From Pseudomonadota bacterium (GTDB lineage: Bacteria > Desulfobacterota > Desulfobulbia > Desulfobulbales > JAGXFP01), in assembly GCA_018823285.1 (NCBI GenBank), contig JAHJIQ010000007.1:4536-68535 (forward strand): a DNA stretch of 64,000 bases. Reading direction: 5' to 3'. The position numbers and the translations under genes are program-made. A model generated the notes under the pieces. It had not been told where the DNA came from and ran no database searches. It worked only from the letters and a program-made list of their open reading frames with translations. Shown here one piece after another: positions 14,330-29,558 of this stretch (the stretch's first letter is position 1; the number at the start of each line of letters is the position of its first letter).

Positions 14330-16672
14330 ATGAAAAAATACAGCAATATTCTTTCCAGGATCGGCAATACTCCATTAGTCCCTATTCAGAGGCTGAATCC
14401 ATACAAGAATGTGTTAATTCTTGCGAAGCTTGAGTCATTTAATCCGGGAGGTTCGGTTAAGGAGCGTATTGCTCTCAACATGATCGAGACCGCTGAGAAG
14501 AGCGGCGAACTGACGCCGGACAAGATTGTCCTTGAAGCAACCAGCGGCAATACAGGCATCGGTCTGGCGATGGTCTGTGCTGTCAAGGGCTATAAATGTC
14601 AGCTGGTCATGCCGGAATCAGCAAGTATTGAACGGCGCAAGATCATGACCGCCTATGGAGCGGAAATTCTTCTCACTCCAGCCAAAAGAGCAACGGATGG
14701 AGCGATTGAACAGGCTTACGCCATGGCCCGGGAACACCCTGACCGTTATTTTTTGACTGACCAGTTCAATAACGATGCCAACTGGCAGACCCATTACCAG
14801 CATACCGGCCCGGAAATCTGGGAGCAGACCGATGGCAAGGTTACGGATGTTGTTGCAACTCTTGGAACCACAGGCACCGTGATGGGGATCTGCCGTTATA
14901 TGGCGGAACATCACCCTGAGGTGAAAGTGACCGCCATGGAACCGTTTCTGGGTCATAAGCTTCAGGGTCTGAAGAATATGAAGGAGTCATATAAGCCCGG
15001 GATATTCAAGCGAAATGAACCCTTTCAGGTGATCAATATCCCTGATGAAGAGGCTTTTAGTAAGGCCAGACAGTTGGCGGCCAGGGAGGGTTTGTTTGTC
15101 GGGATGAGTTCCGGAGCGGCCATGTGTGCCGCTCTGACCAGAGCTGCCCAGATTGAGAAGGGCCTCATAGTTGTTATTTTCCCGGATGGCGGCGAGAAAT
15201 ATCTTTCCACCCCGCTGTTTAGTGCAGAACAGGTCAAGGAGGAGGTGGAGGTTGTATCCCGGCTCAAGTTTTACAATACCCTGTCGAAGCGCAAAGAGCT
15301 CTTCAGACCTGTAAATCCCAAAACGGTAACTTTCTACACCTGTGGGCCGACCGCGCATGAGCCGGCCAATCTGGGCCATTGTCGACGCTTTATTCATTCC
15401 GATCTTGTGAGTCGCACATTGAAGTACCGTGGCTATGAGGTGAAGTTCTTCATGAATTTCACAGACCTCGACGACAACACCATCAGAGGTGCCGAGGAGA
15501 ACGGTCAGTCTGTTGCCGATTTCACTGCTGGATATATCAGCCAATTCAAGCAGGATATTGCAGCTTTAGGGGTACTCCCTGCTACCGAATATCCCAAGGC
15601 TTCGGAACATGTCAACCGGATGATCGATATGTCCCGTGACCTCGTGAAAAAAGGTTTTGCTTACGAAAAACATGGCTCCATCTATTTTGATATTTCCAAA
15701 TTTTCCGGGTACGGGAGGCTTTCCGGTATCGATCTCAGCAAGATCCAGCATGGGAAAACCGTTGATCTGGATGATTATGAGAAGGACAGCCCGGTTGATT
15801 TTACCCTGCTTAAAAGATCAGCCCTTACTGAGCTGAAGAGCGGAATATATTTTGAAACCGAATGGGGAAAGATGAGACCTGGCTGGCATATTGAGTGTGC
15901 GGCGATGTCTTGTCATTTCCTTGGTGATACTATTGATATTCATTCCAGCAGTCGGGATCTGATGTTTCCGCATCATGAGAACGAGATCGCCATTGCCGAG
16001 GCACTCAGCGGCAAACCGCTGGCCAATTTCTGGCTGCACAGTGAGCTTGTGCTGGTAGAAGGAAAGAAGTTGAGCCGGGGGGCAGGGAATCTCATTACCC
16101 TGAAAGATCTTGTTGCTAAAGGATATTCAGCCCGCCAGGTCCGGTATTATCTGTTACGAACGCATTATCGTAAACCCATCAATTTTTCTTACCGGAAATT
16201 TGATGCAGCCTTGGCAAGTTTGAAGAGGCTCGACGAATTCTGCATCAAGATTCTGTGCCTTCCACCTGACTTGCCCCATCCTGAAGTGGCCGCTTATCTG
16301 ACAGAGCTTGAGGAAAGGTTTTTTGCAGGACTCGATGATGATCTGAACGTCTCAAAGGCTTTTGGAGCCTTGTTTGACTTCGCCAAGAGGGTCAACCCTA
16401 TTCTGGAAGCAGGGCGGCTTGATCGGGACCAGAAGGCGTATATCCTTGATGCGTTAAGGCGGATCAATTCGGTGCTCAATATTCTGAAACTTGAGGAATG
16501 TCCTTTGGCCCCGGAAATTGACAAGCTCATAAAAGAAAGGGAAGATGCCCGCCGGAACGGTGACTGGGTCAAAGCTGACGGGGTTCGCGATCAGCTTGCC
16601 AGTCAGGGTATTGAGGTGATTGATACTGCGAAAGGGACGACGGTCTGGAAAGAGAAGAAAGGTGGCAAATAG
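14330..16672 (+). CDS. Fusion protein: N-terminal PLP-dependent cysteine synthase (CysK/CysM-like) plus C-terminal full-length cysteinyl-tRNA synthetase-like module
   Basis: Residues 1-~300: NTPLVPI...SFNPGGSVKERIA...SGNTGIGLA (cysteine synthase). Residues ~310-780 align to CysRS (YTCGPT..., GWHIECAAMS, FPHHENEIA, C-terminal DGVRDQLASQGIEVIDT). One uninterrupted 780-codon ORF. Confidence 0.85.
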   Translation: MKKYSNILSRIGNTPLVPIQRLNPYKNVLILAKLESFNPGGSVKERIALNMIETAEKSGELTPDKIVLEATSGNTGIGLAMVCAVKGYKCQLVMPESASIERRKIMTAYGAEILLTPAKRATDGAIEQAYAMAREHPDRYFLTDQFNNDANWQTHYQHTGPEIWEQTDGKVTDVVATLGTTGTVMGICRYMAEHHPEVKVTAMEPFLGHKLQGLKNMKESYKPGIFKRNEPFQVINIPDEEAFSKARQLAAREGLFVGMSSGAAMCAALTRAAQIEKGLIVVIFPDGGEKYLSTPLFSAEQVKEEVEVVSRLKFYNTLSKRKELFRPVNPKTVTFYTCGPTAHEPANLGHCRRFIHSDLVSRTLKYRGYEVKFFMNFTDLDDNTIRGAEENGQSVADFTAGYISQFKQDIAALGVLPATEYPKASEHVNRMIDMSRDLVKKGFAYEKHGSIYFDISKFSGYGRLSGIDLSKIQHGKTVDLDDYEKDSPVDFTLLKRSALTELKSGIYFETEWGKMRPGWHIECAAMSCHFLGDTIDIHSSSRDLMFPHHENEIAIAEALSGKPLANFWLHSELVLVEGKKLSRGAGNLITLKDLVAKGYSARQVRYYLLRTHYRKPINFSYRKFDAALASLKRLDEFCIKILCLPPDLPHPEVAAYLTELEERFFAGLDDDLNVSKAFGALFDFAKRVNPILEAGRLDRDQKAYILDALRRINSVLNILKLEECPLAPEIDKLIKEREDARRNGDWVKADGVRDQLASQGIEVIDTAKGTTVWKEKKGGK

Positions 16673-17304: not shown

Positions 17305-18588
17305 TCATCTCTCCAGATCACTGAAGATAAAATGGGTGAGGGCTTCTGCTTCCTTCGCGGTAGCGATAAAGGGGGGCATGTATGCTCTTTTATTTCCCAT
17401 ACTCTCATAAATAAAGGTCATGCCTTTGGGTTTCATGCCTTGGGTCAATGAGGTGATGTTGTTGAACGGACCACCGACGGAATGGCAAGAGAGACAGAGA
17501 AGATCAAAGACCTGTCTGCCTGTTTTGCTCATGTTTTCGTCTTTAATCTCCCGGGTATCGACCCATTTTGCTGTATGCAGAATTCCAGCATCTTTTACTG
17601 CATCGATCTCAGTTTTCAGAATCGTGTTTGAGTACATGAAGTTATGAATAATATACGGTCTGCGCCCGCTTTCGCGGATGAATTCAAATGAGCCAAGATA
17701 AAAGAGGCCGAGTACCAGCATGACTGCTGCCAGACCCCGGTTGATGTTGGCAGGCATCTTAATTGCCATACCGAGGCCGCCAAGAATAATCAGAGGTGAA
17801 CAGACAATGAAAATCTTGATTACAGGTTGGATGTCGGGCATGTTTTTAAAAATCAATTCGTGCATGTCCGGGGGCAGGGCGCTTTTGTACCACCATGCGG
17901 AAGTGAGAAAGAGAACAAAGGGGGCCAGAAGCCACTTGGCGCAATAACGGACAAGGGTTGTTCTCAGAGCATCATCTTTTGACCATGAAGCGGTAAGGAA
18001 GCCGAACAGGCCTGCCAACATGATGGCGAGAAAGAATCTGAAAAAGAGGGACGGCCAAAACGTGGGATGAAAAAAACCGTGCCAGAAATTACCAGTGATT
18101 AGCCATTCGCCCGGGGTAAGCATGAAACCTACAATGCCGTTGATCACAAACAGCGATAAGAACGCTGCGGCAAAATATATCCAGCCGATGGTCAGATGGG
18201 TCCTGTTGCTGATTCGGTTGAATGTTTTGTAATAGATAAACAAGGAAATGATCTCGACCAGGAAAAAGACCCACTCGGTGGCCCACGCAAAAACAAAGAG
18301 ATGGATCAGTTTAGAAGTTGCGGCCGGATTTAGAACCGAGATTGTGAACCAGATACCTACTCCGGTCAAAGCCCCGAGCACCATGGTGAGTAGAACAAAA
18401 AGTCGGGTGTGTTTATAAACATACCCTAGGATACTTGGACTGTTTTCACGCAAGCCCTTATGTTCCGTAAGCACCAGAAAAAGTCCGCCGCCGATCGCGA
18501 AATGGGAAATATAGACATGAAGAGTCGCAATCAGGGCAATAAGAAGACCGCCACCGGCAAAGTCTAGTTGCCATACTGGATAGTTCAT
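17305..18588 (-). CDS. Cytochrome bd (CydA)-superfamily-like membrane protein with a fused C-terminal monoheme cytochrome c domain
   Basis: N-terminal TM helices align by eye to CydA (LHVYISHFAIGGGLFLVLTE vs CydA MYHFLFVPLTLG...; ATEWVFFLVE vs AIEGLMAFFLES). The C-terminal ~90 aa carry CLSCH plus a distal Met (YMPPF). Confidence 0.55.
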   Translation of the reverse strand: MNYPVWQLDFAGGGLLIALIATLHVYISHFAIGGGLFLVLTEHKGLRENSPSILGYVYKHTRLFVLLTMVLGALTGVGIWFTISVLNPAATSKLIHLFVFAWATEWVFFLVEIISLFIYYKTFNRISNRTHLTIGWIYFAAAFLSLFVINGIVGFMLTPGEWLITGNFWHGFFHPTFWPSLFFRFFLAIMLAGLFGFLTASWSKDDALRTTLVRYCAKWLLAPFVLFLTSAWWYKSALPPDMHELIFKNMPDIQPVIKIFIVCSPLIILGGLGMAIKMPANINRGLAAVMLVLGLFYLGSFEFIRESGRRPYIIHNFMYSNTILKTEIDAVKDAGILHTAKWVDTREIKDENMSKTGRQVFDLLCLSCHSVGGPFNNITSLTQGMKPKGMTFIYESMGNKRAYMPPFIATAKEAEALTHFIFSDLER

Positions 18589-20367: not shown

Positions 20368-20491
20368 TGTTGATCCTTGCTGTGATTCTGATAAGAGAAG
20401 AGCCGTCATTCTTTCCAGTATTGAAGAAAGAATGACGGCTCATGTTGTTTTCAGGGATGGAGAAACTCCAACCCTGGATTGCGATCAGAGT

Positions 20492-20854
20492 CTATTTGCC
20501 GCTGGTCTGGATCTTGTCACCCTTAGACTCATCAATAATAATGACATCCCCATGGATGGTGCTTCCCGCACCCATGACAACACTATTCATGTTGTTGTCT
20601 CCGCTCCCGGAAGAGGAACTGGAACTGGAGGAAGAAGCACCCCTCTGGGCGCTATGCTGGGCAACTGCAGCCTGTGATTTGGAATTCATGATGATGAATT
20701 TGATGTTCTTGTCGCCCTTTCCCATGTCATCATAACTGGCGATACCGTCGTCAGTGGATTTTGATATGCCGTCATCTAGATCATCGGCCATGGCAACACC
20801 AAAGCATGAAAAGAGGAGCAGTGATAATAGTAAAAACAATTTGATATTTTTCAT
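20492..20854 (-). CDS. Small secreted protein with a poly-Ser tract and one degenerate copy of the locus repeat
   Basis: Signal peptide MKNIKLFLLLSLLLFSCFGVAMA/DD, an S9 run, then NNMNSVVMGAGSTIHGDVIII, which resembles the NxA(V/I)GxGxxAxxGSV core of the neighbouring repeat proteins. Confidence 0.6.
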   Translation of the reverse strand: MKNIKLFLLLSLLLFSCFGVAMADDLDDGISKSTDDGIASYDDMGKGDKNIKFIIMNSKSQAAVAQHSAQRGASSSSSSSSSGSGDNNMNSVVMGAGSTIHGDVIIIDESKGDKIQTSGK

Positions 20855-20945
20855 CTTACATCCCTCAAATCAATTGACCTTTAACATCAAAACCAAATCA
20901 ACAGGCTGTTATTAGCTGATCAAAATAATAACAGAGGTTTATCCA

Positions 20946-21881
20946 TTATTCAACAGTAACTGATCCCATGCTGGCTTCGGAACCAGCACCAATGGCAACG
21001 TTAGCAGACTTGTCAACATTGGCTTTGTTGGAAATTGTGCCTTTGATGTCCGCATTCTTGATGGTGACAGAACCCATATTTGCGGTAGCGCCCTTACCAA
21101 TGGCAACGTTTGCTGACTTGCTGACGTTAGACTGGTTGGAAACAGTGCCTTTCACATTAGCTCTGTCCAAAGTCACGGAACCCATATTGGCAGTAGCGCC
21201 TTGACCGATGGCAACGTTAGCAGACTTGTCAACATTAGCCTTGTTGGAAACAGTCCCTTTAATGTTGCTGTTTTTCATGGTAACAGAACCCATATTTGCG
21301 GTAGCGCCCTTGCCGATGGCAACGTTTGCGGACTTGCTGACGTTAGAGCGGTTGGAAACGGTGCCCTGCACACTGCCCCTTTCCATGGTAACTGAGCCCA
21401 TGTTGGCGGTAGCGCCCTGGCCGATAGCAACGTTGGCGGATTTGTCGACGTTGGCCCGGTTTGAAATGGTGCCCTTTACATTACCACCCTTCACAGTTAC
21501 AGAACCCATATTGGCGGTAGCGCCCTTGCCAATGGCAACGTTTGCGGACTTGCTGACATTGGACTGGTTGGAAACAGTGCCTTTGATATTAGCCCTGTCA
21601 AGAGACACGGAACCCATGTTGGCGGTAGCGCCCTGACCGATGGCAACGTTTGCAGACTTGTCAACATTGGACTTGTTGGAAACGGTGCCTTGAATGTTGG
21701 AGCCTTTAACGCCTACCGAACCCATCCTGGCGGTGGCACCCTTACCGATGGCAACGTTTGCGGACTTGCTGACATTGGACTGGTTGGAAACAGTACCTTT
21801 AATGTCGGATTTTGCCATTGAGGCAGTTGAAAAACCCATGACCAGACTTAATGCTGTTACTGCGATGACTGCTTTCTTCAT
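20946..21881 (-). CDS. Secreted tandem-repeat protein, 8 x 36-aa repeats (curlin-like core NVAIGxGATANMGSV)
   Basis: Signal peptide ...STASMA/KSD, then eight head-to-tail 36-aa units (GTVSNxSNVxKSANVAIGxGATANMGSVxxxxxxxK) that alternate between two subtypes. Strong RBS aaggagggg. Confidence 0.8.
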   Translation of the reverse strand: MKKAVIAVTALSLVMGFSTASMAKSDIKGTVSNQSNVSKSANVAIGKGATARMGSVGVKGSNIQGTVSNKSNVDKSANVAIGQGATANMGSVSLDRANIKGTVSNQSNVSKSANVAIGKGATANMGSVTVKGGNVKGTISNRANVDKSANVAIGQGATANMGSVTMERGSVQGTVSNRSNVSKSANVAIGKGATANMGSVTMKNSNIKGTVSNKANVDKSANVAIGQGATANMGSVTLDRANVKGTVSNQSNVSKSANVAIGKGATANMGSVTIKNADIKGTISNKANVDKSANVAIGAGSEASMGSVTVE

Positions 21882-21929: not shown

Positions 21930-24900
21930 CTACTTCATGATAACTGAGTTTTTGTTGGACTTGCTGCCACCGGTGGCGACATTGATATTCTGTCCGAAAC
22001 TGAAGGGAGAATCAGTGTCGTTCACCGTAATACCTCTACCTGATGAAACCGATACATTGCCATTCACAGTGCCACTTTTTATAATTACGGCGCCGGAATT
22101 GGCTTCAGAACCGGATCCGACAGCGGCATTTACTGCCACCATACCGCCGTGGACATTGGTTGAAACATTGCCCCGGACGGTGCTGTTTTCGATTTTGGTG
22201 GTGCCCATGTTGGCCTCGGAATTGCTGCCGACTGCGACATTAATGGCCCCTCCACGAACCTTATTGGTGATATTGCCGCCGACATTGCTGTTTCTGATGA
22301 TTGTCGCGGCCTGGTTGGCTTCAGCTCTGCTGCCGACGGCGACGTTCAGTGCTCCACCCCCAACTGTATTCTTGATGTTCCCGCGGACCGTGCTGTTTTC
22401 GATGTTGGTGGCCGCCTGATTGGCTATCGCACGATTCCCGACGGCAACGTTCAGTGCTGCACCACCCACAGTGTTGGTGATGTTGCCCTTAACATCGCTG
22501 TTTTCGATGTTGGTAGCTGCCTGATTGGCAACTGTACGGTTTCCCACTGCTACGTTCAAAGCCGCGCCGGCAACCTGATTGTTTACATTTCCGGAAACAT
22601 TGCTGTTTTTTATCTTCAAGGCTGCCTGATTGGCCTCTGATCTGTTGCCCACCGCAACATTCAGGGCGGCTCCGCCGACTGTGTTCTTAGCAGTGCCTTT
22701 GAAGCTGCTGTTTTCCATCTTGACCGCAGCCTGGTTGGCCTCTACCCTGTTGCCCACTGCGACGTTTAGAGCAGCACCGGCAACTGTGTTTACTGCATTT
22801 CCGCTGAAACTGCTGTTTTCCATTTTGACGGCGGCCTGGTTGGCTTCGGCCCTGTTGCCCACAGCAACGTTCAGAGCAGCTCCGGCAACGGTGTTTACCG
22901 CATTGCCTTTGAAGCTGCTGTTCTCCATTTTGACCGCAGCCTGATTAGCCTCAGCCCTGTTGCCTACTGCAACGTTCAGGCCAGCCCCAGCCACGGTGTT
23001 CACTGCGTTGCCGCTGAAATTGCTGTTCTCCATTTTAACGGCGGCCTGGTTGGCCTCTACCCTGTTCCCCACAGCAACGTTCAAGGCGGCGCCGCCAACG
23101 GTATTCACGGCATTGCCCTTGAAGCTGCTGTTTTCCATCTTGACTGCAGCCTGGTTGGCCTCAGCCCTGTTGCCGACAGCGACGTTCAATCCTGCCCCGG
23201 CCACGGTGTTCACCGCATTGCCTTTGAAATCACTGTTTTTCATGTTCACAGCGGCTTGGTTTGCTTCGGCCCGGTTACCAACAGCAACGTTCAGGGCAGC
23301 ACCGCCGACGGTGTTGACGGCATTGCCTTTGAAACTGCTGTTCTCCATCTTGACGGCAGCCTGATTGGCCTCTACCCTGTTCCCCACCGCAACATTCAGG
23401 CCAGCCCCAGCCACGGTGTTCACCGCGTTACCATTGAAGCTGCTGTTTTCCATTTTGACCGCGGCCTGGTTTGCTTCGGCTCTATTGCCGACTGCAACGT
23501 TTAAAGCCGCTCCGCCAACGGTATTGACTGCAGCGCCTTTGAACTCGCTGTTTTTCATGTTCACAGCGGCCTGGTTGGCTTCTGCCCGATTGCCGACAGC
23601 AACGTTAAGAGCGCCGCCGACGACCGTATTAACGGCTGCGCCTTTCATTGTACTGTTTTCCATCTTCAGTGCGGCCTGATTTGCTTCAGCCCGATTCCCT
23701 ACGGCAACGTTAACTGCCCCAAGGGCTCCGATAGAGTTCACAGCGGCACCTTCAAGGCTGCTGTTCTCCATTTTCACTGAGGCCTGGTTGGCTTCAACCC
23801 GGTTGCCGACTGCAACGTTGACCAGGTTCTGACCGATAGCGGTATTGACAATTGCGCCTTTGACCTTGGAGTTCTCCAAGCTGGTTGCGACCTGTCTTGC
23901 TTCAGCCCTGTTGCCGACGCCTACATTGACGAGATTCTGGCCGACGGCACTGTTGACAATCGCGCCGGTAACCGATGAATTATTAAGGTTGGTTGCGGCC
24001 TGGCTTGCGGTGACTCTGTTACCGACGCCTACATTAACCAGATTTTGCCCGACTGCGGTGTTGATGGCTGCACCGGTCATCTGGCTGCCGCTCATTTTAA
24101 TGGAGGCCTGATTGGCTTCGACCCTGTTGCCGACCCCGACGTTAACCATGTTTTGCCCAACAGCGGTATTAATGGCGGCACCGGTGAGCTTTGATTTTTC
24201 CAGGGTTGTTGCTGCCTGGGTGGCATCGACCCTGTTGCCGACTCCGACATTGACCATATTCTGACCGACGGCAGTATTCAAAACGGCGCCGGTCACCTGA
24301 CTGCCGTTCATTTTGATTGACGCCTGGTTGGCTTCGACCCTGTTTCCAACTCCGACATTGATCATGTTTTTACCGACAGCCGTATTTATGGCGGCGCCAG
24401 TCAATTTGCTGTTATCCATTACCACTGAAGACTGGCTCGCTTTGACTCTGTTGCCGACCGCGACGTTAATTGACTGGTCAACCACGGAAGTATTCAGGAT
24501 TGCGCCGGTCGACGTGCTGTTCTCCATGCGGATCGAAGACTGGTTCGCATCAACCTGATTTCCTACAGCGACATTGATGGCATTTTTGCCCATGGCCGTA
24601 TTGATTGCAGCCCCGGTAATATTGCTGTTCTTGGTATTTATTGATGCCTGATTGGCAGAAACTTTGTTGCCAACGGCGACGTTAATGTTCTTGTCAACCA
24701 TGTTGGTGTTGATCGCTGCGCCGGTGAGTTTGCCACCAAGTTTTATTGATCCCTGGGTTGCCTCAGCTTTGTTGCCAACAGCAACGTTGACGTTCTGCTT
24801 TCCTTTATTGGCGTTAATAACCGCGCCGGACATATCAAGATTCTTAAGTGCAACTGAACTCTGATGGGCTGTACTGTCTTTGCCCACCGCTACGTTTACA

Positions 24901-25025
24901 TCTTTGGAAATCTGGTCCGGGATGTTCAGCACCGCGCCCTTTACATTGGACTCGGCTGCAACCGGAGAGACGGCGGTGATGAAAAAACAGGGAGCAAGAA
25001 TCGTCAGCAATAGTACTTTTTTCAT
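21930..25025 (-). CDS. Giant secreted tandem-repeat protein, ~27-28 x 35-36-aa repeats (core NVAVGNRAEANQ)
   Basis: Start at MKKVLLLTILAPCFFITAVSPVAA/ESN (RBS gggagg). The rest of the protein is repeats such as GNAVNTVAGAGLNVAVGNRAEANQAAVKMENSSFK. No Cys or Trp in the mature part and aromatics are scarce. Confidence 0.8.
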   Translation of the reverse strand: MKKVLLLTILAPCFFITAVSPVAAESNVKGAVLNIPDQISKDVNVAVGKDSTAHQSSVALKNLDMSGAVINANKGKQNVNVAVGNKAEATQGSIKLGGKLTGAAINTNMVDKNINVAVGNKVSANQASINTKNSNITGAAINTAMGKNAINVAVGNQVDANQSSIRMENSTSTGAILNTSVVDQSINVAVGNRVKASQSSVVMDNSKLTGAAINTAVGKNMINVGVGNRVEANQASIKMNGSQVTGAVLNTAVGQNMVNVGVGNRVDATQAATTLEKSKLTGAAINTAVGQNMVNVGVGNRVEANQASIKMSGSQMTGAAINTAVGQNLVNVGVGNRVTASQAATNLNNSSVTGAIVNSAVGQNLVNVGVGNRAEARQVATSLENSKVKGAIVNTAIGQNLVNVAVGNRVEANQASVKMENSSLEGAAVNSIGALGAVNVAVGNRAEANQAALKMENSTMKGAAVNTVVGGALNVAVGNRAEANQAAVNMKNSEFKGAAVNTVGGAALNVAVGNRAEANQAAVKMENSSFNGNAVNTVAGAGLNVAVGNRVEANQAAVKMENSSFKGNAVNTVGGAALNVAVGNRAEANQAAVNMKNSDFKGNAVNTVAGAGLNVAVGNRAEANQAAVKMENSSFKGNAVNTVGGAALNVAVGNRVEANQAAVKMENSNFSGNAVNTVAGAGLNVAVGNRAEANQAAVKMENSSFKGNAVNTVAGAALNVAVGNRAEANQAAVKMENSSFSGNAVNTVAGAALNVAVGNRVEANQAAVKMENSSFKGTAKNTVGGAALNVAVGNRSEANQAALKIKNSNVSGNVNNQVAGAALNVAVGNRTVANQAATNIENSDVKGNITNTVGGAALNVAVGNRAIANQAATNIENSTVRGNIKNTVGGGALNVAVGSRAEANQAATIIRNSNVGGNITNKVRGGAINVAVGSNSEANMGTTKIENSTVRGNVSTNVHGGMVAVNAAVGSGSEANSGAVIIKSGTVNGNVSVSSGRGITVNDTDSPFSFGQNINVATGGSKSNKNSVIMK

Positions 25026-25323
25026 AGCGGCCCTCCCGGAACGCCTGAAGGCTGTTCCAGAATTGAGATTGTTCATTTATTACTGGTCAGCAAGTGATCG
25101 TATATAATTTCCAAGAGTCAGTGTTACATGCAAAGGTGAATATAATATTCAAAAGAAAGGCTCGTTCTGTTTCTGCCTTGGATACTTGAATAGACATTTG
25201 GAAGCCTTAATAACATAATATGCATTATACAAATGCTCCGCTCAACTGACAGTGAACTTTTGCCAATTTTTCTGTGAACAAATCACTCTTTGTAAATATG
25301 GGTTTTCTGTAAACCATTTGCGG

Positions 25324-25722
25324 TTAATCCCAGGTGAAATCGGCGCTGATTTTTGCAGCGCCGGAGACGTTGGAAACATTCAGAACAGTGTCAAACGACA
25401 CGGACTCTCCGTTCATAATCGGCTGATGCCCCTTTATGGGCATTTCTGTTGAGTGGAGCACGGCACCGGATATTGACAGAATGTGCAGAACAAGGTGCCC
25501 CCGCAGAACAATTCGGGAGATGTTTTTAATGCTTCCTTTCACAATTACTACTTTATTGGCAGGGTGATACTCTGCTTCCATGGAATCAAGAGTGACATAG
25601 GCATATTCCTGATCGGTCGAAGTAAGTGTTTTTCCGATGGCCGAGTTGTCGCTAACAGAGAACAACGTAAGTGCTGTAAGTAGCACAAATACCAGTATGG
25701 TGTTAGAAAGTCTTTTGGTCAT
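25324..25722 (-). CDS. Small secreted/anchored accessory protein (predicted beta-rich)
   Basis: N-terminal hydrophobic signal (MTKRLSNTILVFVLLTALTLFSV). The remainder has alternating beta-strand-like patterns. Lies between the secretion genes and the repeat genes. Confidence 0.5.
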   Translation of the reverse strand: MTKRLSNTILVFVLLTALTLFSVSDNSAIGKTLTSTDQEYAYVTLDSMEAEYHPANKVVIVKGSIKNISRIVLRGHLVLHILSISGAVLHSTEMPIKGHQPIMNGESVSFDTVLNVSNVSGAAKISADFTWD

Positions 25723-25836
25723 AGCCAACGCCTTTTTCAAACACATCATTTTCAGCCCCGGTCTCTTCTCCCTGCCAAAATTATGAGGCCCGGGGTTGAT
25801 TTGGATAAAGCCGCACCATTGTGCGTAATGATATAA

Positions 25837-26133
25837 TCACTTCACTGAACTGAACGGTTTTTTTAATTCGTTTTTAACTATTTTGCTCTCAAGTACAGAC
25901 CCATATTCACGGCTGTATACGGTCCGTGTTTCGCCGGTAACTGTGTCGATAACAAAGGCACCTATAACCCCACCTTTGTCGCCTATGGAAGTTGCCCATG
26001 ACGAAAGCTGATAACGCCCGTTATCGAGAGCAAGAGTTGGGGTTCCTTCAACTTCAATTACCTGGTATGCCCCGGTTAGCAGAAGAAACATCAGGGTGAC
26101 ACCAACGCCGAACAAAAAATATTTGATTTTCAT
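25837..26133 (-). CDS. Small membrane-anchored accessory protein
   Basis: MKIKYFLFGVGVTLMFLLLTGAY... single N-terminal TM, 98 aa, same operon. Confidence 0.5.
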   Translation of the reverse strand: MKIKYFLFGVGVTLMFLLLTGAYQVIEVEGTPTLALDNGRYQLSSWATSIGDKGGVIGAFVIDTVTGETRTVYSREYGSVLESKIVKNELKKPFSSVK

Positions 26134-26170
26134 GATCATCTCCAATTGTCGCAACAGGCTTTTATCGTGA

Positions 26171-26905
26171 TCATTTGGTCTGGGCTCTAGAGAAATCGTC
26201 AGATTGAGCGCCCTGGCCTTCTACCTCTATAAATTCATCCGGATCCAGGATCTTCTGGCCGATAATTTCAGAGACCTCTTTGGTGTCGATTGTGAGTTTC
26301 ACAAAGGCATCGCCAGCGGCGTCCCAGCCGTAGTCTTTCAGCCTGGCAAGGTAGATGGTTGCGAGTACTTTTGATTTAACCACATCTGATTTGAGCATGT
26401 AATTTTCAACGGTCGTCTCACTTTCCAGGGTGAAGCCGACTATCCGTTTTGCAAGTTGTTTGTAAGCATCAATTTCTGCGGCACGCAATGCGCCAAGAGG
26501 GGCAACCATTGCAGGGGTGGAGGTTGCAAAACCGACCCGGGTAAAAGACTTGCCGTTAAAATTCATCGGCATGCCGTCGATGTTCTCAAACTCGTTAAGA
26601 GTGATCGTGGCGGTGGCTTTGGCAATGTCTTTTTCGGCGTCGTAGACCACTTCATCGATTTTGACGCCCCGGATCTCAGCTTTGGTCTTTGATTCGGTCC
26701 GGCCTTCAAAGCTCGTTGCCATCATGTTTTCCACCGACTCGGTGGATCTGATTTTGAGTCCGTAAATTGCCTCTACGATTGCTCGCTCAGCTATAATCTT
26801 AGCGGCTCTGGTGGTCATGATTTTTTTGTTGCCGGCCAGTGCCGTTAATGGTGAGCATAATAGGGCTATTGCGATCAGGATTGTTGAAATTCTAAGGATG
26901 CGCAT
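26171..26905 (-). CDS. LPP20-like periplasmic/lipoprotein-family protein (two LPP20-type repeats)
   Basis: Signal peptide, then two copies of A-R-A-A-x-I-x-A...L-x-x-x-I-x-G-x-x-I/L-x-S-x-T-x-V-E-N (TTRAAKIIAERAIVEAIYGLKIRSTESVENMM; GALRAAEIDAYKQLAKRIVGFTLESETTVENYM). RBS gggagga. Confidence 0.5.
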   Translation of the reverse strand: MRILRISTILIAIALLCSPLTALAGNKKIMTTRAAKIIAERAIVEAIYGLKIRSTESVENMMATSFEGRTESKTKAEIRGVKIDEVVYDAEKDIAKATATITLNEFENIDGMPMNFNGKSFTRVGFATSTPAMVAPLGALRAAEIDAYKQLAKRIVGFTLESETTVENYMLKSDVVKSKVLATIYLARLKDYGWDAAGDAFVKLTIDTKEVSEIIGQKILDPDEFIEVEGQGAQSDDFSRAQTK

Positions 26906-26989
26906 GTTTGTTCCTCCCTGCATGTATATCATTCAGTTTCTGAAAATTGTTAATTGTTATTATGATAACACCCGTTAAACAGGCAGATT

Positions 26990-28345
26990 TTACCATTCAT
27001 CGTCTTTCAGTTTACGACCAAAACCGAACCCGGCTCTCTTTGGTGCAGCCGCCGGAGCGGGAGCGGCTTCGGGTTGAGCGGCTGGAGCGGCCTGGGCCTG
27101 GGCAATTTCCTGGTCGGCATATACCGCAGTTTCAACGTTCTGGGCAACCGGAGCAGCAGCAACCTGTGGGGTGGAGGCAGCATTCGCTTCTGCGGCCATC
27201 GCCGCCTCGTACAGGATATTGTTCAACGCTTTGCGGCGTGCACGGGCTTCATCACGGAAAGGCATGGTGGTATAAATTGCAATAAACTGGTCCTTGGATA
27301 TTTTCTTGCTGCCGATCTGGTAGGCGGGATCAAATTTTGCCAATGCGGCTTCGGTCTGAGAGTCAAGCTGACCGGTCATTTGAAGATCGTAGCCGTGAAT
27401 GTAAAGCCATTGCTGCACTGCTGCGGTTTTGGCGGCATCATCCATCGAGTAGTATATTTCTTCCAATGATTCCAGCACGATCGGGTCTGGATTTGCATCG
27501 TCTCCAAGCAATCTCCAGTATGGAAGATTGAGATATTTACCGATCATTTGTACCATACTGACCTGAACGAGCAGACGAACCGCTTCATGGCGCCCCTGTA
27601 CTTTTTTGACGGAACCCTTCAGTCCGAAAGTCGGGCCGAAAAGAGTAAGGCCGATCTCTTTTTCCTTCATGGCTTTGTGGACTTCCATACTGTTGGTGGT
27701 GGTCATTTTCGGGATGCCGGTCAACGTGTTGGGATCTATCATATTAAAATCAATGGTGATACGCGCCTTGCCGGTTTTTCCGGTGTTGCCGAAGTTTGCC
27801 CCAACTTGTTCTGATGGCAGGGAGGTTTTGATTCCCTTGATATTGGCAGTTGCAGCGGCATCCATTCCTTCTCCTCTGGTTTCAAGTCCCCTGTCGAATT
27901 CGGTGATGCCACCGGTTAATACCACATCGGGTTTGATTTTGTTCTCAAAGGAAGAGTATCCGGTGACCATCTGGTTCTGAATAAAGGCCGGGTCGTAGGG
28001 GACATAGCCAACACCGCCACCTATCGAGTTCAGGGTGCTTTTCATGATCTCGGTAATATTCCTCTGGATTTCGCCACCGGTTGTAGCGGCGGTGCCTGTA
28101 TTGTCGGCAATGTCGGTGGACATTATATTGACAAGGCCGGTATCATAGACACCGGTCATGATTCCCAGTTCCGAGAGGGCTTTATTGTATGAAGTAATTT
28201 TGACTTCCGGAGCTGATTCTTCAAGCTCAACATCCACGTCGCGCGGGTCCATCCCTCCGCATGAAACGACCAACGGCAGAAATGCAGCCAGCAATGTACT
28301 CCACAGGATCTTTCTGAATAATGCGCCTGAAGTATTAACGCTCAT
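26990..28345 (-). CDS. CsgG/HfaB-family-like outer-membrane lipoprotein with a C-terminal peptidoglycan-binding-like domain and an Ala/Pro/Gln-rich tail
   Basis: Lipobox LVVSC. Segments alignable by eye to E. coli CsgG (DVVLTGGITEFD vs NIMVEGSIIGYE; ARITIDFNMIDPNTLTGI vs IAVNLRVVNVSTGEIL). QQWLYIHGYDLQMTGQLDSQTEAALAKF resembles PG_binding_1. Confidence 0.6.
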   Translation of the reverse strand: MSVNTSGALFRKILWSTLLAAFLPLVVSCGGMDPRDVDVELEESAPEVKITSYNKALSELGIMTGVYDTGLVNIMSTDIADNTGTAATTGGEIQRNITEIMKSTLNSIGGGVGYVPYDPAFIQNQMVTGYSSFENKIKPDVVLTGGITEFDRGLETRGEGMDAAATANIKGIKTSLPSEQVGANFGNTGKTGKARITIDFNMIDPNTLTGIPKMTTTNSMEVHKAMKEKEIGLTLFGPTFGLKGSVKKVQGRHEAVRLLVQVSMVQMIGKYLNLPYWRLLGDDANPDPIVLESLEEIYYSMDDAAKTAAVQQWLYIHGYDLQMTGQLDSQTEAALAKFDPAYQIGSKKISKDQFIAIYTTMPFRDEARARRKALNNILYEAAMAAEANAASTPQVAAAPVAQNVETAVYADQEIAQAQAAPAAQPEAAPAPAAAPKRAGFGFGRKLKDDEW

Positions 28346-28901
28346 GATCTTCCTCTCCATTTCTAACTTAATTAGGATATTAATATATTAAATAAGTGGA
28401 ACCCATATCAAAGAAGGTCGGGTTTGGAACCTCGACATGTAGAGTTTTCCACTCCTAGATTACATAGAGCTGAGTATTAAAGTCAACAAATAAAGTTCCA
28501 GCAAAAACCGGCTTTCGGGACGTGGTGTACAATCATGGAAAAGATCGTGTTGTCAGGGTCTTGGCTCGATTTGTGCTGTCGGCTCGATGTCATGAATCCA
28601 TTATATATCTCAGTGTTACAAATAAACCGTGAAGTTTGTTGCCTGATTTTTGTGATTTAATAACACCTAAAGATTTTTTACAGGTAACAACAGTTTGGCA
28701 AAAGGTGCAATAGGTTGTCAGAAATATATTCCGCCTGTTTTCGCTAATTTTCAAGTTGAACGAGCAGTTGGCCGGGGGATGATATGTGCTGTGCAGAGGT
28801 GTAATTTGCTAGGAGAGAGTTATAATTCGATTGAAAAAGTGGCATCTTGCTGTAATCTGTTAAATGCTGCCAAATGAACAATAAAATGGAAGGTGGATGC
28901 A

Positions 28902-29558
28902 ATGGATGAAATTTTTGCTGAAAATGAGCTATTCTCCGGTCTTGAGAAAAAAGATCGGGACATCATCATGGCGGTGGCTGCTAAAAAGAGTTTCCCGAAG
29001 AATACGGTGATACTCAGTCAGGGAGATGACACGCACTCGTTGTATATAGTCACGAGTGGCAAGGTTAAAGTTAATATTGTCGATGAGAACGGCAAAGAGA
29101 TAATTTTGTCAATTCTTGGCCCGGGCGATTATTTCGGTGAGATGACCGCTATAGAGGAAGGCGCTTCAAGGAGCGCTTCGGTCGTTACCCGGGAAAAGTG
29201 TGAGGTGCTGGTTCTTGCCAAAAAGGATTTCCGGAGGATTATTTCGGACAATCCGGACATTGTGTTCGGGCTGTTAAGAGGAGCCAATGAAAGGATCCGG
29301 AAAGCCAACCGGAAAATTGAAAGCCTTGCCCTTATGGATGTATATGGCCGGGTGGCAAGGCTTTTCATGCAGCTTGCGGTTCCTGATGGTGACAAGCTGG
29401 TTATTCAGGAGAAGCTTACGCATCAGGATATTGCCAACATGGTCGGATCATCAAGGGAAATGGTCAGCAGGGTCATGAAAGAACTGACCATTGGAAATTA
29501 TATTGGCGTCACACAAAAAATCATTGAGATCAATGGCAAGCTGCCATATTCGTGGTAG
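28902..29558 (+). CDS. Crp/Fnr-family transcription regulator (cNMP-binding domain plus HTH)
   Basis: GDYFGEMTAIE...RSASVV cNMP-binding signature and a C-terminal HTH (THQDIANMVGSSREMVSRVMKEL). Divergent from the CsgG-like operon across a ~540-bp AT-rich spacer. Confidence 0.85.
   Translation: MDEIFAENELFSGLEKKDRDIIMAVAAKKSFPKNTVILSQGDDTHSLYIVTSGKVKVNIVDENGKEIILSILGPGDYFGEMTAIEEGASRSASVVTREKCEVLVLAKKDFRRIISDNPDIVFGLLRGANERIRKANRKIESLALMDVYGRVARLFMQLAVPDGDKLVIQEKLTHQDIANMVGSSREMVSRVMKELTIGNYIGVTQKIIEINGKLPYSW

Follow-up and report, generated by a model that had tools for sequence, protein, structure and literature searches.

A 64,000-nucleotide (nt) stretch of bacterial DNA (GenBank assembly GCA_018823285.1, contig JAHJIQ010000007.1, positions 4,536 to 68,535 of the forward strand; GTDB order Desulfobulbales), referred to below as the window, carries a gene for a secreted protein of 311 amino acids (aa) composed of 36-residue repeats. 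On balance, this protein is probably the major, conserved subunit of a curli-like (type VIII secretion-like) system that has not been characterised before and whose subunits are not curlins, a conclusion that we hold with moderate confidence. The gene belongs to a set of seven (-)-strand genes that encode, in order, a CsgG-like lipoprotein of 451/456 aa, a 244/253-aa protein with LPP20 domains, two proteins termed p105 and p141, a giant paralog of the repeat protein, the 311-aa protein itself and a small acidic partner, p120.

20946..21881, (-) strand: small (core) repeat subunit gene; 311 aa, a signal peptide followed by eight 36-aa units of alternating A and B type.

As a first-pass annotation of this DNA had claimed, the open reading frame (ORF) encodes a signal peptide plus eight 36-aa units. 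The 23-residue signal peptide, MKKAVIAVTALSLVMGFSTASMA|K (..ASMA|K), is followed by exactly 8 x 36 residues, and the C-terminus is the final residue of unit 8. Odd units read ..GTVSN(Q/R)SNVSKSANVAIGKGATANMGSV..K and even units ..GT(V/I)SN(K/R)(S/A)NVDKSANVAIGQGATANMGSV..(D/E). The alternation of two subtypes in a 72-aa super-repeat, also proposed there, is borne out by periods of 108 and 216 nt over 20988-21802 (Tandem Repeats Finder) and by mean unit identities of 0.75, 0.84, 0.73 and 0.84 at lags 1 to 4, a clear period of two units. The subtypes are distinguished at unit positions 1, 11, 12, 15, 24 and 36, with the swaps K36 versus D/E36, K24/Q24, S15/D15 and Q11/K11. The mature protein has a mass of 28 kDa and an isoelectric point (pI) of 10.5 and is devoid of C, F, H, P, W and Y; its gene is preceded by a strong Shine-Dalgarno sequence, AAGGAGG. 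Pfam and NCBIfam scans of all eight operon proteins returned no family for the 311-aa subunit, the giant or p120, and a search of solved structures by sequence gave no match for the subunit. The rest of the window holds no further copies of the 36-aa repeat. The GC content of the cluster, 0.50 compared to 0.51 for the window, shows no trace of horizontal acquisition.

The conservation of this gene arrangement was analysed by scanning one genome per species with a profile of the CsgG-like protein, which yielded 80 loci, and by comparing the window proteins with six-frame ORFs by BLASTP. The genes concerned in the window are the following.

26990..28360, (-) strand: CsgG-like outer-membrane lipoprotein; 451/456 aa, lipobox ..VVSC.
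20492..20854, (-) strand: p120; 120 aa, with a signal peptide, an acidic N-terminal part, a variable linker holding a run of nine serines (S9) and a C-terminal motif.
21930..25076, (-) strand: giant paralog; 1048 aa if counted from the first ATG, or 1031 aa with the public-record start at 25025.

The 80 loci belong to Desulfobacterales, Desulfobulbales, Desulfurivibrionaceae, Desulfuromonas, Trichloromonas, Geomonas, Nitrospirota, Sulfurospirillaceae and candidate division FCPU426. A p120 homolog was present in 75 of them, and the 120-aa ORF is thereby confirmed as a real gene. The loci without p120 are cut by a contig end (L018, L020 and L062), lie on a 5.6-kb contig (L028) or are flanked on both sides and hold neither a p120 nor a repeat gene (L012). 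A scripted count placed a repeat gene directly upstream of p120 in 54 of the 58 loci having at least 1.3 kb upstream; the other four (L054, L078, L083 and L084) were missed only through overlapping stop-to-stop ORFs, and BLASTP shows the repeat gene there. The usual order is [giant] - small repeat protein - p120 - CsgG-like - LPP20-like - p105, and in the clade of the window (L006, L007/L055, L010, L011, L013-L016 and L020) the structural genes stand downstream instead. The module formed by the small repeat protein, p120 and the CsgG-like, LPP20-like and p105 proteins is thus conserved across several phyla, and strains in culture carry it too, for example Desulfobacula toluolica Tol2, D. phenolica and Geomonas sp. 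Red32. A separate large repeat gene was found in ~21 of the 80 loci, always directly upstream of the small subunit gene. Because the small type occurs in essentially every locus and the giant in only about a quarter, the small repeat protein is the core subunit and the giant is accessory; calling the 311-aa protein a "second" subunit, as had been done, reverses this relation.

The giant comprises ~27 units of 35-36 aa with the core GNRAEANQ and shows no period-2 signal. It shares 33% identity and a common 36-aa register with the 311-aa subunit (BLASTP E 4e-29), and the two core motifs differ, in agreement with the earlier view that the subunit is a distinct paralog and not a fragment of the giant gene. 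The last 3-4 units of the giant (21930-22300, (-) strand) switch from ..GNRAEANQAA.. to ..ANMG(S/T)T.., which is the small-subunit motif, and do so also in L007 and L010. The protein then ends in a unique tail of ~45 aa, ..GITVNDxDSPFSFGQNINV..SNKNSVIMK, conserved in L007, L010 and P0014. This tail and the ANMG end could provide a contact for the small subunit or an anchor.

Word-indexed protein searches greatly under-report the family (15 matches for the subunit, 2 for the giant), and an exhaustive phmmer search over 1.84 billion representatives recovered no more than 122 relatives at E<=1e-3, of which many are short fragments; the low phmmer yield is probably due to repeats breaking assemblies and to composition corrections. 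The literature on CsgG-like proteins, LPP20, Desulfobacterota and non-curli substrates of type VIII secretion gave no description of the module, although coverage was incomplete and absence is not proof. Loci L001-L005 (P0001-P0008) hold a distinct paralog group with 4-5 units after a non-repeat N-terminus of ~100 residues, encoded by stand-alone genes. The impression that homologs generally stand alone, outside a CsgG context, stemmed from this group and was rejected by the genome scan. In other metagenomes (P0009-P0015 and P0017), FecR-domain proteins end, and an S8 peptidase begins, with 2-3 copies of the 36-aa unit; the unit thus serves as a terminal module as well, perhaps one that docks other proteins onto the same structure. 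A 2.4-kb contig with p120-like and CsgG-like genes (L024) is assigned to "Promethearchaeota archaeon", most likely through faulty binning.

The partner encoded next to the core subunit was then compared with the repeat unit and with the Csg proteins. In the p120 family the signal peptide is followed by the motifs (G/D)DLDDGISKxTDDxI and xDxNI(K/N)FIxxNAKSxA, by a Gly/Ser/Thr/Lys-rich linker of variable length and composition, and by the C-terminus GDxNMNSVV(M/L)GAGSxVKGDIIIIDxSKGDKTQV. The window protein has DLDDGISKxTDDxIA, KNIKFII..KSQA and, C-terminally, NSVVMGAGSxxHGDxIIID. The acidic region and the S9 run that had been described in it are both present; the run sits in the linker, is absent from the orthologs and reads as a lineage-specific linker. 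p120 is acidic (median pI 4.8; net charge -5 over the first 30 mature residues), opposite to the subunits, which carry about +1.75 per unit. That p120 contains one degenerate repeat unit, as had been claimed, found no statistical support and was rejected: a single-unit hidden Markov model (HMM) gave no signal above shuffled sequences, hhalign of p120 against the repeat unit was weak (E 0.02, probability 1%), and only the signal peptides matched when the p120 and subunit families were compared. A two-unit HMM placed the C-terminal ~22 residues of p120 on unit positions 23-36 plus 1-9, that is, on the junction of two units, with scores of up to 10.4 bits; 25% of the 77 p120 members scored above the 99th percentile of shuffles and the window p120 scored ~0 bits. 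The resemblance, which extends over ~20-30 residues, is therefore reproducible but statistically weak, and homology is not demonstrable.

These data make p120 a candidate adaptor, nucleator or chaperone. The analogy with CsgB and CsgA put forward in the first-pass annotation keeps the support of the CsgG-like gene in the operon and of the cross-phylum synteny; what it loses is the homology between p120 and the unit and the S9 run, which is not conserved. A nucleator role resembling that of CsgB is plausible from synteny, opposite charge and the weak motif, not from homology. It is also possible, if somewhat doubtful, that p120 is no nucleator and acts as a periplasmic chaperone or targeting factor, a functional analogue of CsgC or CsgE that maintains the basic subunit in solution and brings it to the channel. 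The conserved opposition of charge would suit this function, as would the lack of significant homology between mature p120 and the repeat unit, and no other CsgE- or CsgC-like protein was identifiable in the operon. On the other hand, the C-terminal NMNSVVMGAGSxVKGDII aligns reproducibly to the two-unit junction and, among comparisons with the Escherichia coli Csg proteins that were all weak, its best match was to CsgB repeats R3-R4 (E 0.017, probability 2.7%; CsgF 0.11, CsgE 0.3), which would fit a templating rung.

The spacer between the subunit gene and the p120 gene contains a further element, for which the window turned out to be the exception in the family.

20906..20934, (-) strand: AT-rich inverted repeat CTGTTATTA-N11-TAATAACAG in the 91-nt spacer from the 311-aa gene to the p120 gene.

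A hairpin had been claimed to separate the two genes. An inverted repeat does exist at this place (with a loop of N11, not N13), but its 9-bp AT-rich stem does not form in the intergenic RNA at minimum energy, and folding of the spacer is no more stable than that of shuffled sequences (z -0.37; best local folding free energy (dG) -7.5 kcal/mol, z +0.7). A terminator function of the window hairpin was rejected on energy, z-score and composition. By comparison, 67 of 69 other loci (L011-L090) have a strong stem-loop at this place, with a stem of 12-18 bp that is often perfect, a median dG of -28 kcal/mol in a 50-nt folding window and a median z of -5.8. The sequences are unrelated between lineages, and some stem-loops have a U-tract after the stem while others have a U-tract before it and an A-tract after; the stem-loop is conserved across the family as a structure. 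It is retained by the closest relatives of the window (-35 kcal/mol in L007, -31 kcal/mol in L010), and the inverted repeat of the window is probably a decayed copy of it. In pilus and other fibre operons, a major subunit gene followed by a stem-loop and accessory genes is the typical layout. By this analogy, the stem-loop may be a partial terminator or a 3'-end stabiliser that gives an excess of the major subunit over the accessory proteins.

The repeat units were analysed across the family. The 56 complete small subunits consist of a signal peptide and 4-13 units of 36 residues, most commonly 5, 7 or 8; none has another domain and in all of them the C-terminus falls at a unit end. The orthologs in L007 and L010 have exactly 311 residues and align to the window subunit without gaps at 64-67% identity. 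The family is basic (median pI 9.9) and lacks Cys, Pro and aromatic residues. Whole-protein matches of some small subunits to CsgE, Pentapeptide_4, YajR_YAM, Hirudin and Staphostatin_B were discarded as repeat-summation artefacts, with no single matching stretch. Among 364 units, the inward-type positions S2, V4, G6, V8, N10, S12 and V14 are kept and alternate with variable polar odd positions; there follow a conserved (A/S)-A-N-(V/I)-A-I-G corner and the conserved A28, N29, M30, G31, S32 and V33. G6, N10, N19 and G23 are invariant, and A28, M30 and G31 are at least close to it.

Period-2 alternation, defined as a lag-2 minus lag-1 identity of at least 0.10, was found in 19 of the 56 complete small subunits and in no giant. 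The alternating positions differ by lineage and the kind of change is constant. In the 12 strongly alternating proteins, charged A/B differences are all charge inversions or charged/neutral swaps, never same-sign, and all fall at the variable positions 3, 5, 7, 11, 13, 15, 16, 24, 27 and 36 (for example K11/D11, K15/E15, E16/K16 and K24/E24 in L007, or E24/K24 and K27/E27 in L019 and L029). Such a pattern would be expected from selection for compensated charge ladders if successive units adjoin at equivalent positions; compensated ladders would therefore imply in-register stacking, in the simplest case with each rung formed by one 36-aa unit, a rung length that we infer from the sequences. The charge inversions provide evidence for a stacked beta structure that is independent of structure prediction. 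The AlphaFold2 (AF2) model of the 311-aa subunit is an all-beta solenoid (predicted local distance difference test (pLDDT) score 89.5, predicted template modelling score 0.86). Combined, the conservation over 364 units, the charge inversions and the AF2 model, read with the known bias of AF2 on repeats, place the subunit in the beta-solenoid class, probably with in-register stacking.

An even number of units was observed in 17 of the 19 strong alternators compared to 13 of the 37 other subunits, which fits head-to-tail stacking that preserves the register. Within the clade of the window, internal units of a given subtype resemble one another more closely inside one genome than across genomes, whilst the terminal units 1 and 8 keep positional orthology; this suggests some concerted evolution in the middle of the protein and specialised ends. 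These observations bear on an alternative that we consider unlikely, in which the secretion route is the same and the product is not a fibre but a monomeric surface beta-solenoid (an adhesin, a coat or a mineral- or polymer-binding protein) tethered by p120 or the giant. The number of units is fixed at 8 in the clade of the window, units 1 and 8 are distinct as well as positionally orthologous, and unit 8, for example, has ASMGS instead of ANMGS, which could mean that the ends are specialised rather than open. The strongly basic surface would suit binding to anionic surfaces, and the occurrence of the unit as a short module on FecR-domain and S8-peptidase proteins need not imply fibres. Against this, no anchoring or capping domain was found among the 56 complete subunits, the succession of subunit gene, stem-loop and accessory genes is typical of abundant polymer subunits, and alternation combined with even unit numbers would hold the register across a head-to-tail joint.

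For the lipoprotein, the Pfam CsgG match is below threshold (E 0.0011; 18.8 versus 20.8 bits), with 7 of 32 homologs at E<=0.01, and solved structures searched by sequence gave no match. An AF2 model built with the 32 homologs (pLDDT 70) shows two strands of 24-26 residues, and when it was compared with the PDB by Foldseek the top 24 matches were all CsgG (best 6l7c_A, E 1.7e-7, probability 1.0, template modelling (TM) score ~0.5 on the target); FlgT, HpaA and PelC follow, ~1000-fold weaker (E 1e-4 to 1e-3). Alignment of the family profile with CsgG of E. coli K-12 by hhalign (E 5.8e-4) covers 203 columns from the lipobox Cys onward and pairs IADNTGT with IQDETGQ. Beyond the CsgG-like core, the C-terminal part of the lipoprotein (26990-27300, (-) strand) has three elements that canonical CsgG lacks: a PG_binding_1 domain, a low-complexity tail rich in Ala and Pro, and a nearly invariant GFGRxLxDxEW end. 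From the lipobox Cys, the Foldseek ranking and the hhalign result, we take the window lipoprotein, encoded together with the subunit, to be a divergent member of the CsgG family, and it would function as a channel. The reading in which CsgG-fold and LPP20-like proteins instead form rings under the outer membrane, as FlgT/FlgP/FlgO and PelC do, with the repeats as a peptidoglycan-attached scaffold in an envelope or periplasmic structure, would account for the PG_binding_1 domain, for the presence of the LPP20 family, FlgT, HpaA and PelC among the fold and family matches and for the marginal sequence match to CsgG itself, but it is very improbable given the lead of CsgG among the structural matches, two very long model strands consistent with a membrane-spanning hairpin, an operon with no flagellar or polysaccharide-export genes, and a subunit whose lack of Cys, Pro and aromatics resembles a substrate threaded unfolded through a narrow pore.

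For a curli-like system built on the 311-aa subunit, we infer export by the CsgG-like protein, stacking of the solenoid, polymerisation and the roles of p120 and of the stem-loop as follows. The unfolded subunit would cross the outer membrane via the CsgG-like channel and fold outside the cell into a beta-solenoid with successive 36-residue units stacked in register, where the A/B alternation would set opposite or compensating charges atop each other at surface positions. Monomers would then form fibres by head-to-tail stacking, or would stack on the giant paralog, because the solenoid lacks capping domains; open-ended solenoids without such domains polymerise, as in curli (PMC10192328). The acidic p120 would probably be an adaptor-nucleator coupling the basic subunit to the channel, or else a chaperone for secretion or against aggregation. 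The stem-loop after the subunit gene would set a high ratio of subunit to accessory expression, and would have decayed in this genome. A more specific proposal, which we make tentatively and regard as possible rather than probable, is that the system produces a new class of surface fibre: a basic, aromatic-free solenoid with 36-residue rungs and no solved counterpart, exported via a peptidoglycan-tethered divergent CsgG channel, started by a p120 that merges the roles of CsgF (channel adaptor) and CsgB (template), and kept in head-to-tail register by A/B salt-bridge ladders between rungs.

Several results weigh against a curli-like assignment of the 311-aa subunit. Firstly, the CsgG-like protein is divergent, with its extra peptidoglycan-binding domain, marginal sequence match and a model pLDDT of only 70, and a CsgG-like fold is found also in the non-channel ring lipoproteins FlgT, HpaA and PelC, which appear lower in the hit list. 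Secondly, no match to Curlin_rpt (PF07012) at E<=1 was obtained in the 311-aa, 1048-aa and 120-aa proteins or in 32 small subunits elsewhere, and hhalign of the subunit-family profile with E. coli CsgA (E 0.21 over 2 columns) gave no curlin homology; no CsgE homolog was found in the operon and its CsgF similarity, in p105, is sub-threshold only. Thirdly, stand-alone paralogs without a CsgG-like neighbour exist (L001-L005). Fourthly, even unit numbers would follow trivially from duplication of AB pairs, and Foldseek of the subunit model found no similar solved fold (best E 0.02, TM score <0.2). Finally, AF2 is over-confident on beta-solenoids for repeat sequences, uncompensated stacked charges being one tell-tale (PMC11795689).

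The remaining features of the gene cluster and its surroundings are listed here.

25224..25252, (-) strand: promoter-like CTGTCA-17-TATAAT in the 247-nt gap upstream of the giant; consensus match only.
25324..25749, (-) strand: p141, a secreted beta-rich protein.
25837..26154, (-) strand: p105, a small protein that begins with a membrane helix at the N-terminus and conserves the motif GRYQLSSWA..GAFVIDTxTGETKTVY.
26171..26932, (-) strand: LPP20-like periplasmic protein with two LPP20-like domains; 253 aa, or 244 aa from the start at 26905.
28382..28411, (-) strand: promoter-like TTGATA-18-TATATT just upstream of the CsgG-like gene; consensus match only.
20400..20441, (-) strand: strong hairpin resembling an intrinsic terminator directly after p120, with a 17-bp stem, 8 GC pairs and a T-rich tail.
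28893..29558, (+) strand: Crp/Fnr-type regulator (cNMP_binding and HTH_Crp_2 domains), divergent from the CsgG-like gene.

A single operon fits this arrangement because of the promoter-like sites and the terminator-like hairpin after p120, which is likely the operon end; the site at 25224..25252 may be an internal promoter for the structural genes. The Crp/Fnr-type protein is a possible regulator of the operon, and the same divergent arrangement is seen in L006 and L007. The LPP20-like gene adjoins the CsgG-like gene in nearly all loci, and its product matches PF02169 at E 1.5e-5 (25.8 bits versus a cut-off of 25.9). For p105, solved structures searched by sequence gave no match, and CsgF is the sole recurring Pfam family, below threshold (seen in 4 of 15 members, with E 0.058 at best; hhalign gave E 0.088 across 13 columns). 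The p141 gene adjoins the structural genes in the clade of the window and varies in position elsewhere; no relative of its product was found in Pfam, NCBIfam or the PDB. Outside the cluster, a 780-aa ORF at 14330-16672 ((+) strand) appears from its translation to be cysteine synthase-like in its N-terminal half and cysteinyl-tRNA synthetase-like in its C-terminal half; L007 encodes an equivalent fusion of 785 aa with PALP, tRNA-synt_1e and DALR_2 domains. The gene at 17305-18588 ((-) strand) encodes a membrane protein that resembles cytochrome bd subunit I and ends in a cytochrome c domain (Cytochrome_CBB3); it follows a gene whose 356-aa product, also a membrane protein, matched no family.

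Dedicated secretion of amyloid fibres in Gram-negative bacteria has two paradigms, curli and Fap. None of the eight operon proteins matched a Fap family (FapA-F) in Pfam or NCBIfam. The same scans showed no barrel or TpsB domain of autotransporter or two-partner secretion in the operon, and the subunit ends at its last repeat unit. Some family members score with Pentapeptide_4, below the curated cut-off and with no single matching stretch. Autotransporter, Fap and pentapeptide-protein identities were rejected on these grounds. TibA, UpaB and Ag43 are the best Foldseek matches to the subunit model and share with it, as do pentapeptide-repeat proteins, the all-beta solenoid class, but E is at least 0.02 and the TM score <0.2, and the window subunit lacks a translocator barrel and a passenger architecture. 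With LPP20/FlgP, FlgO, FlgT, HpaA and PelC, the CsgG-like protein has in common an alpha/beta lipoprotein fold, and an LPP20 domain is encoded by the neighbouring gene; the matches are however weaker than those to CsgG (E 1e-4 to 1e-3 versus 1e-7), and flagellar and Pel genes are absent from the window operon.

Published curli surveys rest on curlin or Fap signatures (PMC10192328, PMC12822426) and would miss the module because they require them. The hosts of the family are ecologically important anaerobes of the Desulfobacterota, Desulfuromonadota and Nitrospirota and some Campylobacterota, among them sulfate, sulfur and metal reducers, and its occurrence in cultured Desulfobacula and Geomonas makes the module directly testable. 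If the proposed function is correct, biofilms in sediment and groundwater would contain a matrix or surface component that has so far escaped study. The subunit would then also offer a natural scaffold, a solenoid whose rung is large and whose charges alternate by design of the repeat, and the lipoprotein a further divergent CsgG-type pore for nanopore work.

Of the known systems, the module works most like curli but fails the sequence tests that define curlins. As in curli, a Sec-exported tandem-repeat subunit with abundant Asn, Gly, Ser and Ala and a predicted beta-solenoid fold is encoded in one locus with an outer-membrane lipoprotein of the CsgG fold, and the gene of a small secreted partner adjoins that of the major subunit. 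The motif N-V-A-V-G-N-R-A-E-A-N-Q of the giant also recalls the curlin Q-x-G-x-G-N-x-A-x3-Q, a likeness between low-complexity motifs that is read from sequence only. The differences are that the unit has 36 residues rather than the 19-23 of curlin, that the module includes an LPP20-like protein and a peptidoglycan-binding domain on the channel protein, that the subunit gene comes first and is followed by the stem-loop, and that p120 is not a detectable homolog of the subunit, unlike CsgB, the nucleator of curli being homologous to the major subunit. The HfaA/HfaB/HfaD proteins of Caulobacter, where the CsgG-family lipoprotein HfaB is needed to export small secreted proteins that form very stable multimers on the cell surface, offer a precedent for non-curli substrates; to our knowledge they are not arrays of 36-residue repeats. 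If the 311-aa protein is indeed exported in this way, CsgG-type channels would serve a second, unrelated family of repeat subunits, and the range of type VIII secretion substrates would be wider than curli.

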